Positions 572-9,746 of a stretch of DNA of 64,000 bases are shown in pieces. This stretch comes from an uncultured Chloroflexia bacterium. Lineage in GTDB: Bacteria; Chloroflexota; Dormibacteria; CF-121. The stretch spans positions 79,052 through 143,051 of the forward strand of contig CAWCIV010000004.1 of the NCBI GenBank assembly GCA_963795805.1, read 5' to 3'. A model generated the notes under the pieces. That model worked only from the letters and a program-made list of their open reading frames with translations, was not told where the DNA came from and did not search any database. Position 1 is the first letter of the stretch, and every line of letters starts with the position of its first letter. A program made the position numbers and the translations under genes.

Positions 572-3500
572 ATGTCCTCGCCTACCCGCGCCAGGCGCGC
601 CGGGATGGTGCTGCTCGCCGCAGCCACTGCGCTGATGCTCGCCCCGGCTCCGAGCCTGGTGCAGGCCGCAGGGCCGGGCTGTGCGACGCCAGGGTCGGCT
701 GGGACGGCCACGATCACCGGGGTCGTCAACACCTATTACCCGGGTACCGCCACCGTCGCTGCCGGGGCGACGACCATCACCCTCGGCACCGCGACCGGCT
801 CCGTCACGCCAATCGCGATCGGGGACCTCGTGCTGGTGATCCAGATGCAGGATGCCGCCATCGACTCGACCAACACCGGCGCCTACGGCAACGGCGTCGC
901 TGGCGATCCGGCGACCGGATCAACCTCTCTCAATAGTGCCGGGCTCTACGAATACGCGGTCGCCACGAGCGCGGTGCCACTCGCCGGCGGCAGCCTGACC
1001 GTCAGTAGCGGACTCATCAATGCGTACACCCAGGCAGCCCCGACCGCGACGCAGGGTCAGCGTGACTTCCAGGTCATCCGGGTGCCCCAATATGTGGCGG
1101 CGACACTGGGCGCCGGCCTGACGGCGGGGCCCTTCAACGGCTCAACCGGGGGCGTGCTGGTGATCGATGTGGACGGGGCCCTCAACCTCAATGGCAACAC
1201 GGCCAGCGTCAACCAGGAAGGCTTCCGGGCTGGCCTCGGCCGGCAGCTCGCCGGCGCGGCCGCCGGGGGAACCGGGACCGACTACGTGAATCTCAGCGCC
1301 AACCCATTCCACGGGCAGAAGGGCGAAGGGATCGCCGGAACGCCGCAGTATCTCTACGACTCCCGAACCGGCACCACCGTGAACAACGGGGCCGATGGCT
1401 ACCCGAACGGGAGCACCGCGCGAGGCGCCCCGGGAACCGCGGGCGGTGGCGGCACCGACCCACATCCGTCAGGAAATGACGAGAACACCGGTGGCGGTGG
1501 GGGCGCGAACGGCGGCGCCGGCGGCATGGGTGGCAACTCGTGGAAGTCCAACATCGCCGTGGGCGGCTTCGGTGGGACGGCATTTCCCGCCACCGCGGCG
1601 CGTGTCACGGCCGGCGCCGGCGGTGGCGCGGGTTCTCGAAACAACTCCGGCGCCATCGTGAATGCGAGCAGCGGCGGCAACGGCGGCGGCATCGTGATGA
1701 TCCGCGCCGGAAGCGTGACCGGCGCTGGCAGCATCACGGCGAACGGCGGGTCAGGCATTGGGCCCGACAACGACGGCGGCGGTGGGGGTGGCGCCGGCGG
1801 CACCGTCGTGGTCGTGACGCAGACCGGCGGACTCGGCGGGCTGACCGTCAGCGCGCAGGGTGGTGCCGGCACGAATGCCTGGGCGGCGGATGCCGGCGGG
1901 CCGGCCGACTACCACGGGCCTGGTGGTGGCGGCGGCGGCGGTCTCGTCCTCACGAGCAGCGTCGCCGGAAGCACAAACGTTGCGGGCGGCACCAACGGGA
2001 CCACGACGACGGATAGAAACGCCTACGGGGCCACCCCTGGAGGCATCGGGTCGCAAGCGGCGATTACCGCCGGCCAGGTCCCCGGCGCCGGGTCGGGCGC
2101 CGCCTGCACCTCAGATCTCACGCTTTCCAAGACCCACACCGACCCGCTGGTTCGCGGCGGGACGGGTGTCTACACGCTAACCGCGAATAACGTCGGCGGA
2201 ACGGCCACCAGCGGCACGACCACGGTGACCGATACGTTGCCCGCCGGCTTGACGCCGACGGCGGCCAGCGGCAGCGGCTGGACCTGCGGCATTGCCACGC
2301 AAACGGTGACCTGTACCAGCACAGCAGCCATTGCCAGCAACGCGTCCTTTCCCGCAATCTCCATGACGGTCGCGGTGGCTCAGTCGGCGCCGGCGTCCTT
2401 GACGAATACGGCCACCGTCTCGGGGGGCGGCGAAGTCAACACCGCGAACGACAGCGCCAGCGACCCGACCACGACGGTCGCCCGAGCCGATGTCGCGGTG
2501 ACCAAGATCGCGAGCAGCGGGACCGTGATGGTGGGCTCGAACGTCGACTTCACCGTGACCGCCTTAAACAACGGCCCGTCCGACGCCACGGGCGTCCAGG
2601 TCACCGACCAATTGCCGGCCGGCCTCTCGTTGGTGTCGGCCACAACGATCAGCGGCAGCTACACGCCCGCGACCGGCGTCTGGAACATCGGCTCGCTGCC
2701 GAGCGGCGCGACCGTGACCTTGACGCTGACGGCCAGGGTCACGGCGACTGGATCGCTGACCAACACCGCGCGCAAGACCGCGGAAACGGAGACCGACCCT
2801 AATTCGGCAAACGACACCGCCAGCGTCACCATTACCGGACAAGCCTCGGACCTGACCCTCGCGAAGTCGCACGTCGGGTCGTTTGTCCGCGGGTCGAGTG
2901 GCACCTACAGCCTGGTCGCCAGCAACAGCGGATCGGCAGCGACGGCCGGACTCGTGACGGTGACCGATACCTTGCCCGCCGGGCTTACCCCGACCAGCGC
3001 AACGGGAACCGGCTGGAGCTGCGGCACCGCGGGTCAGACGGTCACCTGCACCCGCTCTGATGCGCTTCCGATTGCTACGTCCTATCCGGCGATCTCGGTG
3101 AACGTCACCGTCTTGCAAACAGCTACCAATAGCGTGACGAACAGTGCCACGATCGGCGGTGGGGGTGAGGTCAACACCGCCAACGACACCGCGACTGACC
3201 CGACCGCCGTGACATCCAGCGCCGACATTGGTGTCGCGAAGACCGCCAGCAGCGGCACGGCGACGGTCGGGTCGACCGTCCAGTTCACCATTACCGCGAC
3301 GAACACGGGTCCGTCGGATGCCAGCGCTATTGTCGTCACGGACCAGCTTCCTGCCGGCACGAGCTTCCTTCAGGCGAGCGCCACCGTCGGGACCTATAGC
3401 GGCGGTACCGGGCTGTGGACCATTGGCGCGCTTCCCAACGGCGGATCGGCAGTCCTGACGATCACGGCAACGGTGACGACCACCGGCGCTCACACCAATA

Positions 3501-5101
3501 CGGCAACCAAGACCGGGGAGAACGAGCCGGATCCCAACGTCAGCAACGATTCATCGAGCGCCACGGTCAATGGTCTGGGGCCTGATCTGACCATCTCGCT
3601 CAGTCATGTGGATCCGTTCGTGCGAGGTACGACGGGCAGCTACAGCGTGGTCGCGAGCAACGTCGGAACGGCATCCACCAGCGGACTGGTGACTGTCACC
3701 GACACCGTTCCGGCTGGCCTGACGCCGACCGCGGCCTCCGGAACCGGCTGGGCGTGCAGCATCGCCGGCCAGGTCGTGACCTGCACGCGCTCTGACGCGC
3801 TCGCTGCTGGTGGCACGTATCCACCGATCGGACTCACGGTCGCCGTGTTGCAGACCGCGCCCAGCACGGTCATCGACAGCGTGACCATCGCCGGTGGCGG
3901 CGAGACAAACCTCGCGAACGATACCGCCACCGACCCGGCGACGATCGCCTCGCTCGCCGACGTGGCCGTGCTCAAGACTGCCAGCAGTGGGTCGGTGACC
4001 ATTGGCTCGAACGTCACGTTCACGGTCACGGCCCACAACGCCGGCCCGTCGAATGCAACCGGCGTCCAGGTGAGCGATCTGCTCCCATCGGGCCTGACCC
4101 TGGTCACGGCCACCCCAAGCGCGGGCACCTATACCGCGGGCAGCGGGGTCTGGACCATCGGGCCCATCCCCAACGGGTCGTCGGCGAGCCTGGTGGTGGT
4201 GGCAACGGTGACCGCGACCGGAACGATTACCAATACGGCGACGAAGTCGGCGGAAAACGAGTCCGATCCGAATACGACCAATAACAGCGCCAGCGCCGCG
4301 ATCAGTGGCCAGCCCACCGCCGTCGTGCCAGGCCCACCGCCCAGCGGGATGGCCATGGTCGCGAACCATCAGGGCCCTGCCTGGCCAGCGCTTCTGCTGG
4401 CAGGAGGCTTGTTCCTCTTGGTGCTCGTGCTCCTGGCGGTCCGCCGGCGGTCGCTTCACCTCTTCCTGGCGGCTGCAGGCCTGGCGGCCGGCACAAGCCT
4501 GATGCTGAGCGCCCCGGCGCAACCGCTGACCGCGACGCGCGCACTCAGCCTCCACGCCGCGACGACGGTGGCATCGGACATCCAGGTCTACGGAAAGACG
4601 ATCTCGATTCAGAAACCGATCGTTGAGAGTCGTCCAACCCTGCATCAAGCAACCGGACCCATCACACCCACTCGCATTCGCATTCCCGCCCTCAACCTCG
4701 ACACGACGGTGGAGGCGGTCGGGGTCAACCGTCAGGGTGCGATGGACGTGCCGAGCAACATCTGGGACGCCGCATGGCTGCAGACTGGAGCCCGTCCCGG
4801 CGCGGCGGGCCAGGCCGTCATCGATGGCCACCTGGATAGTGTCGCGGGAAAGGCCGTCTTCATCGACCTGCACCGGCTCACGCCCGGCGACATGATCTAC
4901 GTGTCAGACGGTTCGGGTGGCGAGTTGACCTTCCGCGTCACGGCCACGCAGGTTGCGCCGCTCAATGGCTTTCCCGCGCTCAAGGTCTTCGGGCCATCGA
5001 AGGGACGACTCCTCAACCTGATCACGTGCGCCGGCAAGTACGACACCGTGCACCGGACTTATGATCACCGACTGATCGTCTTCACGACGCTGGCTGCCTA
5101 G
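572..5101 (+). CDS. Secreted Gly-rich / 6x DUF11-repeat surface protein fused to a C-terminal class F sortase domain
   Basis: Signal peptide, Gly-rich region, six DUF11-like modules (DLxxxK...VTDxLP...TN), then PPPSG + TM + RRR, a second hydrophobic segment, and a sortase domain with GHLD, LITC and YDHRL motifs. Confidence 0.88.
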   Translation: MSSPTRARRAGMVLLAAATALMLAPAPSLVQAAGPGCATPGSAGTATITGVVNTYYPGTATVAAGATTITLGTATGSVTPIAIGDLVLVIQMQDAAIDSTNTGAYGNGVAGDPATGSTSLNSAGLYEYAVATSAVPLAGGSLTVSSGLINAYTQAAPTATQGQRDFQVIRVPQYVAATLGAGLTAGPFNGSTGGVLVIDVDGALNLNGNTASVNQEGFRAGLGRQLAGAAAGGTGTDYVNLSANPFHGQKGEGIAGTPQYLYDSRTGTTVNNGADGYPNGSTARGAPGTAGGGGTDPHPSGNDENTGGGGGANGGAGGMGGNSWKSNIAVGGFGGTAFPATAARVTAGAGGGAGSRNNSGAIVNASSGGNGGGIVMIRAGSVTGAGSITANGGSGIGPDNDGGGGGGAGGTVVVVTQTGGLGGLTVSAQGGAGTNAWAADAGGPADYHGPGGGGGGGLVLTSSVAGSTNVAGGTNGTTTTDRNAYGATPGGIGSQAAITAGQVPGAGSGAACTSDLTLSKTHTDPLVRGGTGVYTLTANNVGGTATSGTTTVTDTLPAGLTPTAASGSGWTCGIATQTVTCTSTAAIASNASFPAISMTVAVAQSAPASLTNTATVSGGGEVNTANDSASDPTTTVARADVAVTKIASSGTVMVGSNVDFTVTALNNGPSDATGVQVTDQLPAGLSLVSATTISGSYTPATGVWNIGSLPSGATVTLTLTARVTATGSLTNTARKTAETETDPNSANDTASVTITGQASDLTLAKSHVGSFVRGSSGTYSLVASNSGSAATAGLVTVTDTLPAGLTPTSATGTGWSCGTAGQTVTCTRSDALPIATSYPAISVNVTVLQTATNSVTNSATIGGGGEVNTANDTATDPTAVTSSADIGVAKTASSGTATVGSTVQFTITATNTGPSDASAIVVTDQLPAGTSFLQASATVGTYSGGTGLWTIGALPNGGSAVLTITATVTTTGAHTNTATKTGENEPDPNVSNDSSSATVNGLGPDLTISLSHVDPFVRGTTGSYSVVASNVGTASTSGLVTVTDTVPAGLTPTAASGTGWACSIAGQVVTCTRSDALAAGGTYPPIGLTVAVLQTAPSTVIDSVTIAGGGETNLANDTATDPATIASLADVAVLKTASSGSVTIGSNVTFTVTAHNAGPSNATGVQVSDLLPSGLTLVTATPSAGTYTAGSGVWTIGPIPNGSSASLVVVATVTATGTITNTATKSAENESDPNTTNNSASAAISGQPTAVVPGPPPSGMAMVANHQGPAWPALLLAGGLFLLVLVLLAVRRRSLHLFLAAAGLAAGTSLMLSAPAQPLTATRALSLHAATTVASDIQVYGKTISIQKPIVESRPTLHQATGPITPTRIRIPALNLDTTVEAVGVNRQGAMDVPSNIWDAAWLQTGARPGAAGQAVIDGHLDSVAGKAVFIDLHRLTPGDMIYVSDGSGGELTFRVTATQVAPLNGFPALKVFGPSKGRLLNLITCAGKYDTVHRTYDHRLIVFTTLAA
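2111..4310 (+). repeat. Three tandem A-B pairs of DUF11-like modules (period about 735 bp)
   Basis: A modules start near 2111, 2847 and 3581 (with a WxC...VTC Cys pair). B modules start near 2486, 3221 and 3956 (NxGPSxA, GxWxIG motifs). Confidence 0.85.
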
Positions 5102-5143: not shown

Positions 5144-5539
5144 TTAGCGCACGGCGCGCAGGGCGAGCTTGATATCCGACACGCCGAGGTAGGCGCTGAC
5201 TCGCCGGGCGCTTCCGCCTGATCCCAGATAGGCGTAGTCGATGTTGACGCTGGCCTCCCGCAGCTTGTGCGCGACCACGCCGAGGCTGCCCGGCTTGTCG
5301 GGGAGGACGACATGGAGCACGTCCTCCTCGCTCGTTTCCCACTCGTGCTCAGCAAAGACCTTCTTTGCAGCAGCCGGCTTGTCGACGATCATCCGGATGG
5401 TTCCGTGATTCTCATCGAGCGTGGCCATGGCCATGAAGGCCAGGATGTTGACCTTCTTTGCGCCCAGCGCCGAGCCGATGATTCCCAGCATGCCCGGGCG
5501 ATTGTCGACGTGCGCCGTCAGTTGCTTTGCCCTGGGCAT
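5144..5539 (-). CDS. ACT domain-containing protein (tandem ACT)
   Basis: Two ACT-like repeats: 'VDNRPGMLGIIGSALGAKKVNI' and 'LPDKPGSLGVVAHKLREASVNI'. Confidence 0.85.
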   Translation of the reverse strand: MPRAKQLTAHVDNRPGMLGIIGSALGAKKVNILAFMAMATLDENHGTIRMIVDKPAAAKKVFAEHEWETSEEDVLHVVLPDKPGSLGVVAHKLREASVNIDYAYLGSGGSARRVSAYLGVSDIKLALRAVR

Positions 5540-5844
5540 GTGTAGGGCTATCCTAGGCCCTGCGGGTTTCGCTTACTTCGCGGCGACGGTGACCTTGTTC
5601 GAGGCGGCGCTCTCCAGGCCTGCGGCGCGCCCGGTCACGTAGTACGTGTATGTCGCCCCGCCAGTCAAGCCGGAGTCAGTAAAGGTCGTTGTGGTCAGGC
5701 CGGCCTTGATCAGGGTCCAGGCACCACTCCCCGCCATACGGTAGAGCGCGAAGGTCTTGTCACCGGCAGCTGCTTTCCAGCTAAGGGTGATCTTGTGTCC
5801 GGACTGCGCCGTTGCAGTCAATCCGGTCGGCGCCGCGGGTAGCA

Positions 5845-8135
5845 CACGTATCAACGTCTGCGCCGTCAGCGTTCCGAGGTGCGCCGTGACCGTGCCGGTC
5901 CCCGCGGACGCGGCGCTCGCCACGAAGGTCGTTCCGCTCCCGGTGGCAGCCGACAGGGTGCCCGGTGTGCCGGTGCTCAGCGACCACGTCGCGGCGCCCG
6001 AGCTCACTGCATTGCCGTACGCATCAGTTGCCGAGGCCGATAACGCCGCCGTCTTGCCGACCGCGAGCGTGACACCTGTCGGCGATACGGCGAGGGCGCT
6101 CGGCGGCCCTGCGTTGACCGTCAGGCTGGCAGTCGCGGTCTTTCCCTGGCTCGTCGCTGTCACGGTATGGGCTCCGGCCGCGGTGGCGGTGCAGGCAGCG
6201 TTCGTGCAGCTGCCGTCCGGCCCGATGCTGTAGCCGGTCCCCGCGGCGGGTCCCAGGTCATTGCCGTACTGGTCGAAGGCCTCCGCAGCGTAGGCCTGCG
6301 ACCCACCGGCCGTAATCGTTGCGGTCGCCGGCGTCAAGCGGATGTGGTCCAGGCTGCCGGCGTTCACAGTGAGCGAGGCGGTCGCGGTTTTGCCACTGGA
6401 GTTCGCCGTTACGGTGTGGGTGCCTGCCACGGTGGCGGTGCAGGTCGCGCCGTTGCACAACCCGTCCGGCGCGATGCTATAGCCGGTCCCCGCGGCGGGT
6501 CCCAGGTCATTGCCGTACTGGTCGAAGGCCTCCGCAGCGTAGGCCTGCGACCCACCGGCCGTAATCGTTGCGCTACCCGGGGACATAGCGATGTGATCGA
6601 CCGTGGCGGGTGTCACGCTCAATGTCGCTGTCGCTGACTTGCCCCCATCGGCTGCGGTCACCGTGTGGCTTCCGGGCAGCGACGCCGTGCAGGTCGCGCC
6701 GGAGCACGAGCCATCCGGCGTGATCGTGAACGCGCTCGTCGTGGTCTGGCCGCCGAGGTCATTCCCGTATTGGTCGAAGCCCTCGACCGCATAGGTCTGA
6801 ATGCCTCCGGCAATGATCGTCGCTGTCGCGGGCGTCAGGACAAGATGATCTAGCGGCCCGACCGTCACGGTTTGCTGGGTGGTCGTGGTGAGGCCCAGGT
6901 AGGTCGCGGTCACGGTGTAGACGCCCGGCGTCGTTGCGCTGCAAAGGTTGCCGGTGCAGGCGGTGGTCGGCGGCCCGATCGTGAGACCGAAGCCGCTGGT
7001 GATATTCGAGAACGTGGCATTGAAGTACTGGTCATCGCCGTACAGGGCATACGCCTGACCGACGCCCGCTGCGGTGGTCTGCATCCGAGGATTCAGATGA
7101 ATGGTGGCGGTTGGGCCCGCGCTCACAGTCAAGCTAGCCGTGGCCGTCGCTCCAGATGCGCTTGCCGTCACGGTGTGAGGGCCCGCCTTGGTGGCGGAGC
7201 ACGATCCGACGACGCACGATCCATCCGGCGTGATGCTCAGGGTGGCTGCCCCGGCGGGGCCGAGGTCATTCCCGTACTGGTCGTAGCCCTCCATGTTGAA
7301 CGCCTGGGCGGTGCCGGCCGCGACCGCCGCGGTTGCAGGCGTGAGTGCCATATGGTCGAAGGCAGAGGCCGTCACCGTTAGGGAGGCGGTACCCGTCGGC
7401 CCGGGCCCACTTGGGCCACTCAGCGGTGCCGGATACCGTATGGGTGCCCGTTCGGGTGGCTCCGCAGCTGGCGGATGTGCAGCTGCCATCGGGTGCGACG
7501 CTGAAGTTCGTTGACGCGGTGACATCACCGACGCTGTTGCCGTACTGGTCGAATGCCGAGGCGGCGAAGGTCGCCGCTCCGCCCGCGGTGATCGTGGCCG
7601 ATGCGGGCGTGATCGCCAGCCTGGCTGCTGGGCCCGGCGTGATGGTCAGGGTGGCCGTCGCGGTCATACCACTGGACAAGGCGGTAACGGTATGCGGACC
7701 GGCGACCGTCGCAGTGCAGGAGCCGGAGGTGCAGGAACCATCGGGGCTGATCGAGTAGGCTGCCCCGAGCTGAACCATGTAGTTGATTTGGTTGCCGTAC
7801 TGGTCGAAGTACAGGACGGAGTACGGTTCCTGGTCGCCGGCACGGATCGTCCAGCTGCTCGGCGAGAGCGCGATGTGGTCGGCCGCAGCCGCCGTCACGT
7901 TGAGGGTGGCGGTCCCGAAGGCCGCGGCGGCTTGTCCCGTCACTTGCTGGCTGCCGGCCTTCGTGCTCGTGCAGACGTTCGCCGTGCACGTACCCTGGCT
8001 GATCGAGAAGGTGACGTGGTTGGTGTAATCGCCGGCATCCTGCCCGTAGGCGTCATAGGCTTCCGCACCGTAGGCCTGCGTTCCACCGGCCGCCATGGTC
8101 ACGCCTGGGGGCGTGATAACGAGATGGTCAATCGG
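5845..8135 (-). repeat. Nine ~83-aa Ig-like repeats (DHxxLTP...FDQYGN...PDGxCxxxxCTAT...HTVTA...TATAxLTV)
   Basis: Read directly from the two translations. Eight of the nine copies have a CxxxxC pair. Confidence 0.85.
6231..6572. repeat. 93-bp perfect direct repeat (6231-6323 = 6480-6572), spacing 249 bp
   Basis: Base-by-base identity from tagccggtcc to gtaatcgttgcg in both copies. Confidence 0.9.
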
Positions 8136-9746
8136 GCCAGGCGTGGCGCCGCCGATGAGCGCGACACTGTGGGGGCTTCCCGGCGTGGTGTCGTTGATCG
8201 TCAAAGTGCCGTTGCGGGGGCCATAGGCGCTGGGGGTAAACGTCACCAGGACCTGGCACCCTCCACCGTTGTTGAGCGGGCCGCAACTGGAGCTTGCCGT
8301 GTAGTCACCCGACGCCGTGACACTCGAAATCGTGACCGGGCCGGCAAAGTTGTCGCTGATCGCGACCGGGACCGTGGTGCTGGTGCCCAGGCTCTTGACG
8401 CCAAAGTTCACGTTGCCGGGCGCAATCCCGAGGGCGCTGCCGAACAGCGTGAGAGTATCGCCGGCCGGCACGGCCAGGTAGCCGCCGCCAGTTCCGAGAC
8501 CGGCAAGGGGGGCCGAGGCATTTTGTTCGTCGGGTGCCTTGATCGGAGCGCCGACGGCGGCCGACCAGGTTTGTTTCCCGGTGGAGGCGTCGATCCCGAA
8601 GATGTTGCCGAGCGTAGACCCGATATAAACGGTGCCATTGACGACGATCGGAGCAGTCGACAGTGAGGCGTCACCGGTGAAACTCCAGAGCGATGCGTTT
8701 GTCGCGAGGTCAACCGCCTGAAGTGTTGAACCATTCAGGAAAAATCCGGTCGAACCACTGAATGCGGGCGCAACGCTCGCATTGAAGGTGCCGAGGTTCG
8801 CCCCTGTCCCCGCGTCGAGGACCGTGTTGCCGCGGGCGGCGTCACGGACGTAGAGCTTGCCGTTGTAGAGGACGGCGGTCTTTCCGCCGCCACCTTCACA
8901 ACCCGTGGCATGGTGCCAGAGGAGGGCGCCGGTCAGGGGTTCGAAGTCATAGGTTTGTGCGCAGGCGTAGGAAACGTAGACGCCCGAGTTCGTGACGACC
9001 GGGGTGCTGTGGTCGCCATTCATCACCGAGGCCTGCCAGGCAATCGCGCCGGTGGCCTCGTGAATTGCGTACAGGGTGCCGCCCGATCCGGCGCCGCTGG
9101 TGTAGACGAGGTCGGAGTTTGATCCAAAGATCGACCCCGAGGGCGGTGAGGTGAAGCTGGTCTGACCGGGAAGCTGCGTGGCCCACTGGCTGGCGCCACT
9201 CTGGGCATCGAAAGCCTGCATCTGACCGGTCGAGTTAATGGTGAAGACACGTCCGTTGTCGTAGGACGCATTCGCCCAGAACGACCCGCCCAGGTCAACC
9301 GGGCCCCAGGCGATCGCACCCGTGCGGTAGTTGATCGCGTAGAGCTGCGCGTGATTGGTTGTCGGATTGGTCGTGGTGACAAAAATTCCCTCCGGGGCAA
9401 GGAGCGGATATGAGACCGGACCGCCGAGATTGAGTGTCCAGGCTGGCTGGAGTGGCGGAGCCATGGTCTGAATTCCCGGCGAACCGCCGTGCGAAGGATT
9501 GACCTGATAGGTCATGCCCTGGTCAGTCGTGGTCGTTTGCGGGTACGGGTTCCAGGCGGCCGCGGCGACCGGTTGGACGGTGATCAGGGCGAGCGCAACG
9601 GCCGCGCTGGCGCTAAGCGCCAGAGCGCGACGAATCAGCGGCGCGCCTTGCTGGCCCAACGTCATTCGGCCCAGTGAAACATCGGAACCTTGCGGCGAAG
9701 GTAACGGCCCGGCTCGGACTTCGCTTCAGTCGGCCAAAAAACTTCA

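Follow-up and report, generated by a model that had tools for sequence, protein, structure and literature searches.

The window analysed here is a stretch of 64,000 nucleotides from the genome of an uncultured soil member of the Dormibacteria in the phylum Chloroflexota (GenBank assembly GCA_963795805.1, contig CAWCIV010000004.1, forward-strand positions 79,052 to 143,051). Near its start, a plus-strand gene (572-5101) encodes a surface protein and a sortase in a single frame of 1509 amino acids that ends in a stop codon and is free of interruption. The protein begins with a signal peptide and a Gly-rich head that resembles the N-terminal domain of AgmC, followed by six DUF11/CLIPPER modules, the motif PGPPPSGMA, a transmembrane (TM) helix, the basic triplet RRR, a second hydrophobic helix and a class-F-like sortase domain (Table 1). 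The open frame reported by a first-pass annotation of this DNA was confirmed, and the coordinates it gave for PPPSG and for the catalytic His, Cys and Arg proved exact. The gene probably encodes a dedicated, self-contained sortase–substrate unit, in which a fibrillar adhesin is joined to its single-purpose sortase.

That the fusion itself is real is close to certain. The homologue search, limited to long proteins and covering assemblies from JGI, ENA and NCBI, recovered 24 close homologues (54-67% identity over the C-terminal 270 amino acids), each of which combines DUF11 modules with the sortase and carries exactly one PGPPxxG, located 253-267 residues before the C-terminus. Among the named homologues, a 'Candidatus Dormibacteraeota' protein (P0003) is the closest. 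Within the class, the same fusion is found in about 25 of 301 genomes as stop-free frames of 1020-3046 amino acids that end in this sortase, both within the genus and family of the window's genome and in a sister family. Because the same in-frame join recurs in independent assemblies, it can be attributed neither to chance nor to sequencing error. Amino-acid conservation continues through the junction between substrate and sortase, where no homologue has a stop. The proposed arrangement of a substrate, a sorting-signal-like element and a sortase in one chain is thus real and conserved, together with its motif and two-helix linker, and none of the 24 homologues is truly split. The two short frames among the close matches (in G241 and G217) are both cut by contig ends. 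A search for short relatives returned 'stand-alone' proteins of 55-68% identity solely on contigs of 3.7 kb or less; several start inside TM helix 1 or at the Met of GMA, and all were set aside as fragments. An internal start at this conserved Met was also dropped, since a reading of the DNA showed no ribosome-binding site upstream of it. The promoter and terminator scan was uninformative and gave no hint of two transcription units at the junction.

In an alignment of 30 C-terminal regions, the linker ahead of the sortase is variable except at P-G-P-P-x-x-G-M-A, where three Pro and one Gly never vary and the conservation of Met and Ala reaches 90% or more, on a par with the catalytic His, Cys and Arg. 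The motif thus equals the active site in conservation while the linker around it drifts, and so selection acts on its particular sequence. The DNA pattern for PGPPxxGMA gives one match each, at the fused gene, in 8 of the 43 genomes of the family and matches nowhere else in the 43; a reversed control pattern gave 3 matches. Downstream of the motif, hydropathy and AlphaFold2 agree on two helices (residues 1271-1290 and 1295-1312; model residues 47-66 and 71-88) that are parted by RRRS and modelled at a predicted local distance difference test (pLDDT) score of ~70-79. RRR occurs in most homologues, its first Arg being invariant and its second at least 90% conserved in a 17-row alignment (A1). 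The first-pass annotation had described this region as a complete cell-wall sorting signal. The hydrophobic segment and the positive stretch that follows it are present, but the word 'complete' does not hold: PPPSG (PPNGG in the clade consensus) has lost the Leu and Thr of LPXTG, no NCBIfam sorting-signal model matches, and the element is not C-terminal, with 216 residues (helix 2, linker and sortase) after RRR. By position, PPPSG corresponds to a genuine LPXTG-type motif and lines up with the PPNTG and LPNTG of relatives, as seen in the series VPNPPNTG (split gene pairs), LPNPPNGG, LPGPPNGG and VPGPPPSG and in the LPNTG and LPNTS of sister clades.

More distant fusions came from an exhaustive phmmer search that used the sortase part as query, and the motifs of the fused relatives grade into one another at one position (Table 1). 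The first-pass annotation had pointed to repeat-plus-sortase fusions as uncharacterised annotations in Chloroflexota, and correctly: forms with LPNTG or LPNTS and forms devoid of helices were recovered in this phylum. Of the true stand-alone sortases, the nearest are P0199 and P0200 (50-52% identity), which are encoded on contigs of 308 kb and 39 kb. Their genes are located 146-158 nucleotides downstream, on the same strand, of genes for surface proteins of 2622 and 2318 amino acids, which end in VPNPPNTGQ, about 20 amino acids, a hydrophobic helix and RRRNQN before the stop codon; the sortases start with one hydrophobic helix, followed by an SDLEMFGK segment. Removal of the stop and the spacer from such a pair gives the layout seen in the window, and the hairpin therefore corresponds to the anchor of the cargo plus the anchor of the enzyme. 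TM helix 1 can be read as the hydrophobic part of a former sorting signal, RRRS as its former positively charged tail on the cytoplasmic side, and helix 2 as the former N-terminal signal-anchor of the sortase; a single helix like helix 2 begins the stand-alone relatives P0199, P0200 and P0034. The two-helix hairpin proposed at first pass is borne out by this comparison, and such a topology would put both the motif and the enzyme outside the membrane. Compared at the level of sequence, the gene pairs show the fused gene to have arisen by merger of a cargo gene with a sortase gene, and PPPSG to descend from a genuine PPNTG sorting motif. When 230 sortase domains are placed in a tree, the fusions, 45 with two helices and 4 with none, all fall in one clade (Shimodaira–Hasegawa-like approximate likelihood ratio test support 96), together with a few stand-alone enzymes that include P0199 and P0200, and motif type tracks the sub-clade. 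In a sister sub-clade (P0036, P0039, P0046 with 2448 amino acids and P0048 with 578), (M/L/V)PNTG is followed by about 30 residues and the sortase, with no membrane helices; these proteins read as fusions of cargo, motif and enzyme that have no anchor of any kind.

The enzyme part is recognized by Pfam Sortase PF04203 (peptidase C60) at residues 1369-1507, with 70.2 bits against a cut-off of 26.6. Class F, to which the first-pass annotation assigned it, is the best-scoring NCBIfam class (NF033748; 125.6 bits with the whole protein, 127.3 bits with the isolated domain) and leads the other sortase classes (32 bits or less; class C, 18.5 bits) by about 95 bits, but both scores lie under the NCBI cut-off of 166, and for this reason the domain is called class-F-like. 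The catalytic residues are intact, as claimed: His and Cys do not vary across 82 sequences, and the conservation of Arg is 90% or higher. With an alignment of 82 rows, AlphaFold2 predicts both membrane helices and a sortase domain with pLDDT >90 (whole-model mean 80.7), whereas an alignment of 17 rows gave a poor model (pLDDT 53). Foldseek matches the sortase model to solved class C, E and A sortases at nearly equal scores (probability 1.0, E ~1e-10), the top matches being class C pilus sortases. A PDB sequence search with the sortase part returned weak class C/E matches only, and the nearest solved structure is remote (E 3e-4). With its triad intact and its fold confidently predicted, the catalytic domain looks functional. 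As in class F, a single membrane helix (helix 2) lies N-terminal to it. The pre-sortase segment ahead of the domain has an invariant Asp and Gly and at least 90% conserved Lys and Ile in alignment A1; it is also found in stand-alone relatives, and AlphaFold2 forms a short helix there (model residues 112-116). The segment may act as a lid or as an N-terminal strand. The nearest stand-alone relatives outside Dormibacteria, from other Chloroflexota genomes (L007-L017), carry lipobox-like N-termini (LLAACGS, LLNSCGS), and some class-F-like sortases may thus be lipoproteins and not helix-anchored.

Table 1. Features of the fused gene (window coordinates), related loci elsewhere in the genome, and motifs and genomes of fused relatives
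Feature	Position or carrier	Strand	Basis or remark
Whole fused gene, 1509 amino acids	572..5101	+	Open frame; fusion kept in 24 close homologues and class-level genomes
Candidate Sec-type signal peptide, residues 1-32	572..667	+	Arg-rich n-region, h-region MVLLAAATALMLA; sequence and hydropathy
Gly-rich N-terminal head, residues ~33-515	668..2116	+	Resembles AgmC N-terminal domain
Stalk, six DUF11/CLIPPER Ig-like modules of two alternating types, residues ~516-1245	2117..4306	+	Pfam PF01345
Conserved motif P-G-P-P-P-S-G-M-A, residues 1253-1261	4328..4354	+	Conservation island
PPPSG, residues 1255-1259	4334-4348	+	Occupies LPXTG position
TM helix 1 WPALLLAGGLFLLVLVLLAV, residues 1271-1290	4382..4441	+	Mean Kyte-Doolittle hydropathy 2.58; AlphaFold2 helix
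Short basic loop RRRS, residues 1291-1294 (RRR, 1291-1293)	4442..4453	+	Sequence
Hydrophobic helix 2 LHLFLAAAGLAAGTSLML, residues 1295-1312	4454..4507	+	Mean Kyte-Doolittle hydropathy 1.72; AlphaFold2 helix
Pre-sortase segment SDIQVYGKTIS (family consensus SDxxLFGKxIS)	4574..4606	+	Conserved in alignment A1
Sortase catalytic domain, class-F-like	4676..5092	+	Pfam PF04203, NF033748, AlphaFold2, Foldseek
His1420 in DGHLDS	4829-4831	+	Catalytic
Cys1486 in LITC	5027-5029	+	Catalytic
Arg1500 in DHR	5069-5071	+	Catalytic
Further sortase locus (outside window)	G000 C1:733475-734116	-
Further sortase locus (outside window)	G000 C4:762474-763190	-
Further sortase locus (outside window)	G000 C2:137433-137871	+
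LAxTG proteins (outside window)	C1, open reading frames of 248 and 712 amino acids; C4, open reading frames of 249 and 465 amino acids
Motif TLPGLPNTG	P0033, 2875 amino acids
Motif MPNTG	P0038, P0042, P0053
Motif LPGLPNTS	L025-L028, P0047, P0074 and others		Sister-family clade
Motif LPAPPDTG	P0031
Motif LPNPPNGG	P0030
Motif LPGAPNGG	P0028
Motif LPGPPNGG	Most of window's clade
Motif VPGPPPSG	Window protein
Candidate recognition peptide VVPGPPPSGMAM			Beside LPGPPNGGMAP, VPNPPNTGQV, LPNTG, LAxTG
Fusion in same genus	G151, G256
Fusion in same family	G153, G211, G235
Fusion in sister family	G396, G298, G185, G308, G203, G254, G154, G206 and others

The part of the protein that precedes the motif has the build of a fibrillar adhesin. 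The h-region of the signal peptide has a mean Kyte-Doolittle hydropathy of 2.42, and VQA|A is a candidate cleavage site. The head scores 110.8 bits over residues 15-471 with NCBIfam NF047640 (gliding_AgmC_N), under the cut-off of 275, a likeness that is best taken as a resemblance only; a PDB sequence search with the head found no solved relative. This domain is retained in every full-length homologue and is the probable distal or adhesive part of the protein. The stalk matches Pfam PF01345 (DUF11) above the cut-off, with 416 bits in six tandem stretches, the number of modules counted at first pass, and is also matched by TIGR01451 (5 stretches) and TIGR04226 (fimbrial isopeptide domain). DUF11 is the CLIPPER isopeptide-bonded stalk domain of fibrillar adhesins (PMC12617251). 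Upon reading of the sequence, the Asp of T-D-x-L-P and a late Asn in N-D are found in every module and the first-strand Lys (xxT/AK) in five of six. In the fifth module (residues 1008-1014, window ~3590-3610), Leu replaces this Lys (DLTISLSH), and this module would probably lack an isopeptide bond even if the others have one. The homologues span 1018-2232 amino acids, and because the head and the C-terminal module are common to all of them, the difference in length must sit in the DUF11 region.

The rest of the genome, which is 90% complete, provides a setting for such a protein. Eight loci match the transpeptidase domain of penicillin-binding proteins, and Omp85 and LpxC were not found; this combination fits a single-membrane cell with peptidoglycan, where wall anchoring makes sense. 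The genome has two separate stand-alone sortases that are weakly class E/C-like, and a third sortase locus split over two reading frames, which is likely a frameshifted remnant. Four proteins have a C-terminus made up of LATTG (in two of them), LANTG or LARTG, then a helix and Arg/Lys. By their C-termini they would be class-E-type cargo, separate from the fused protein, and the two class E/C-like sortases are natural candidates to serve them. The 712-amino-acid protein of this set is rich in Ser, Thr and Gly. PGPPxxG with a TM helix and a basic tail behind it occurs in no other open reading frame (ORF) of this genome; an ORF on contig C4 that ends KNPGGMSS-TM-RRRR was set aside as a motif bearer, as its motif abuts the TM helix and lacks PGPP. 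Directly downstream of the fused gene and convergent with it, window 5144-5539 (minus strand) encodes a small ACT-domain protein of 131 amino acids with no evident link to it. Beyond this gene (5573-9665, minus strand), two ORFs overlap by ~260 nucleotides: 7266..9665 (799 amino acids) combines a signal peptide with a PQQ-like beta-propeller and Ig-like repeats, and 5573..7528 (651 amino acids) has Ig-like repeats and FN3. Both carry repeated 'FDQYGNDLG...ITPDGSC...HTVTA' modules, and together they look like one secreted protein of ~1400 amino acids with a frameshift, either real or due to an assembly error.

Comparison with the gene pairs shows how the unit arose, and a mode of action can be proposed. 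The ancestral substrate gene closed with (P/L)PNTG, after which came a spacer, a TM helix, RRR and a stop, and its own class-F-like sortase gene was located ~150 nucleotides downstream; upon loss of the stop and the spacer, the genes merged and the two anchor helices became a hairpin. In the present protein, the signal peptide would carry the head and the DUF11 stalk across the membrane, helix 1 would stop transfer while RRRS remains in the cytoplasm, and helix 2 would re-insert and take the sortase domain outside, which would leave motif and enzyme tethered on the outer face of one hairpin. Cys1486, from the same chain or from a neighbouring copy, would attack the motif at PPP-S|G, and the ectodomain would be held as a thioester and then handed to a peptidoglycan precursor amine. 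The products would be a wall-linked adhesin and a two-helix sortase remnant of ~250 amino acids that starts with Gly-Met-Ala. In company with a private enzyme, the recognition sequence would have drifted from PPNTG to PGPP-x-(S/G)-G-M-A in this clade. Engineered sortase-LPXTG-cargo fusions serve as self-cleaving purification tags (for example, PMC2901362), and thus a sortase is able to process a motif in its own chain. It is possible, though doubtful, that the fused proteins are obligate single-use self-sorters. Each adhesin would then be cleaved in cis by its own sortase at PGPPx(S/G)|GMA, secretion and wall attachment would be coupled one-to-one at the export site, and tethering would have let the motif drift from LPXTG.

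Several points weigh against the interpretation as a dedicated sortase–substrate unit. The sequence fits cis and trans action alike; cleavage at the motif, an acyl intermediate and wall linkage are what we infer for any member of the family. At the scissile position, the Thr of LPXT|G has given way to Ser in the window's protein and mostly to Gly in the clade, and the Leu has given way to Pro; to our knowledge, no characterized sortase uses PPxGG or PPxSG. Scanned against NCBIfam with E up to 1, residues 1225-1316 matched no sorting-signal model and gave only a chance-level match to 'invert_tail' (E 0.16). AlphaFold2 gives the motif region a pLDDT of ~50 with no confident docking into the active site, and the model is silent on whether the motif docks. 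The gene is patchy, being present in about 9 of the 43 family genomes, many of which are incomplete metagenome-assembled genomes. Ala-x-Ala-like sequences follow helix 2, and signal peptidase might cut there and free the enzyme by a route other than sortase chemistry. The motif may be cleaved by a co-evolved specificity; alternatively, it could have changed role and turned into an uncleaved tether or pseudo-substrate.

The last of these options leads to an unlikely alternative, in which the protein is a permanently membrane-anchored adhesin whose motif is no longer cleaved and whose sortase either acts generally (for instance, on the LAxTG set) or is held in check by the tethered motif as a pseudo-substrate. 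Ser or Gly in place of Thr at P1, Pro in place of Leu at P4, the lack of a matching sorting-signal model, the LAxTG proteins in the genome and the absence of confident docking in the model would all agree with a motif that is out of use. However, PGPPxxGMA is as conserved as the catalytic residues while the linker drifts, sortase clade and motif type change together, sister clades keep a textbook LPNTG in the same fused layout, and the LAxTG cargo could be served by the two other class E/C-like sortases. If the enzyme is compared by structure, a self-polymerising fibre comes into view, in which a class C-like sortase would join the cleaved C-terminus to a Lys of another copy, such as Lys250 in the FHGQKGEG of the head, to give a covalent filament of many subunits instead of, or before, wall anchoring. 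This is improbable. The top structural matches are class C pilus sortases, the fimbrial isopeptide domain TIGR04226 matches the stalk, the ectodomain has 10 Lys only, one of which lies in a strongly conserved head motif, and the pre-sortase segment could be a class C-like lid. Yet the Foldseek scores for classes C, E and A are nearly equal, the class C model scores 18.5 bits compared with 127.3 bits for class F, no separate tip or base pilin genes lie nearby, and no YPKN-type pilin motif was noticed on reading, no pattern search having been aimed at it.

Helix 2 raises a different issue, since it follows the basic RRRS, has a moderate hydropathy of 1.72 and is succeeded by small-x-small residues (SAPA|Q, ASA|Q and APAGA in the family), features expected if it were an internal cleavable signal peptide of a polyprotein. 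Signal peptidase I would then cut at Ala-Pro-Ala|Gln, the freed sortase would act in trans, and the fusion would serve only to couple expression. This scheme is improbable: several family members have Pro at +1 of the best candidate sites, the stand-alone relatives seem to retain one anchor helix at the N-terminus with no obvious cleavable peptide, and a soluble sortase, once freed, would escape from a cell that has only one membrane. Such a cut is, moreover, compatible with the gene encoding an adhesin and its dedicated sortase. An assembly or annotation artefact, by which a missed stop or an indel wrongly joined adjacent substrate and sortase genes, could appeal to the split arrangement of more distant relatives; it is effectively refuted by the same in-frame join in 24 close homologues from three sources and in many independent genomes, none of them with a stop.

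In the textbook view, sortases act in trans on cargo encoded by separate genes, a picture that is challenged by a conserved natural chain of cargo, signal and enzyme. The fused proteins offer a direct test of intramolecular sortase action in vivo. If PGPPx(S/G)GMA is still cleaved, its specificity would be orthogonal to that of the SrtA-type enzymes used in protein engineering ('sortagging'), and if self-sorting in cis were true, the clade would hold a natural sortase with a private, orthogonal specificity. The interpretation as a self-contained unit supplies a first concrete hypothesis of what class-F-like sortases do outside Actinomycetota, and it is of relevance to the way in which the cell surface of uncultivated soil Dormibacteria is built. 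In the full text of papers open without subscription, only engineered self-cleaving tags were found and no natural substrate–sortase fusion. PMC12617251 and PMC13319060 report no sortase fusions.

Among known systems, the class F sortases (NF033748), such as SrtF of Cutibacterium/Propionibacterium acnes (Di Girolamo et al., 2019, as cited in PMC8225981), share with the fused enzyme the His-Cys-Arg triad and the N-terminal membrane helix. SrtF of P. acnes has LPXTG specificity, and the function of class F is listed as unknown (PMC8225981). The characterized SrtF is a stand-alone housekeeping enzyme for many LPXTG proteins, whereas the fused sortase is tied to one cargo with a non-canonical motif and has the extra conserved SDxxLFGKxIS segment ahead of the domain. 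On the cargo side, the fused protein resembles the DUF11/CLIPPER fibrillar adhesins (PMC12617251) and GhlA, the DUF11 'grappling-hook' filament protein of Litorilinea aerophila, also of the Chloroflexota (PMC13319060), in that a distal head is displayed on a stalk of tandem DUF11 modules. The C-termini of those proteins are ordinary anchors or sorting domains, and none has been reported with a sortase domain. With the canonical LPXTG signal (Schneewind-type), the fused element has in common a pentapeptide, a short spacer, a hydrophobic helix and an Arg-rich stretch, and Pro at the first position is a known variant, (S/P)PXTG being listed for class B sortases (PMC8225981). In contrast to the canonical signal, which sits at the C-terminus, the fused element has the enzyme after it, Ser or Gly for Thr, and no match to a sorting-signal hidden Markov model.

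Dedicated pairs of a sortase and a single substrate are known, for instance, the class GN 'marine' sortase with its adjacent LPQTG-type protein and a class B sortase with its adjacent substrate. The pairing itself is thus familiar; what sets the fused gene apart is the covalent fusion of a sortase with its dedicated substrate and, in this clade, the drifted motif. Like these pairs, and most directly like P0199 and P0200 with their neighbours, the fused gene combines a private sortase and one cargo, co-located on one strand, with a motif, hydrophobic segment and basic tail on the cargo and an N-terminal helix on the sortase. It differs from them in that the stop and the intergenic spacer are absent, one polypeptide with a two-helix hairpin is made, and the motif has drifted to PGPPx(S/G)GMA. 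The engineered SrtA-LPXTG-target tags (for example, PMC2901362) are alike in holding sortase and motif in one chain, the enzyme processing its own fusion. These tags are man-made and soluble, with the enzyme N-terminal to the motif and with hydrolytic or Gly-mediated release, whereas the natural fused protein has the opposite order, a membrane hairpin and a presumed acceptor in the cell wall.

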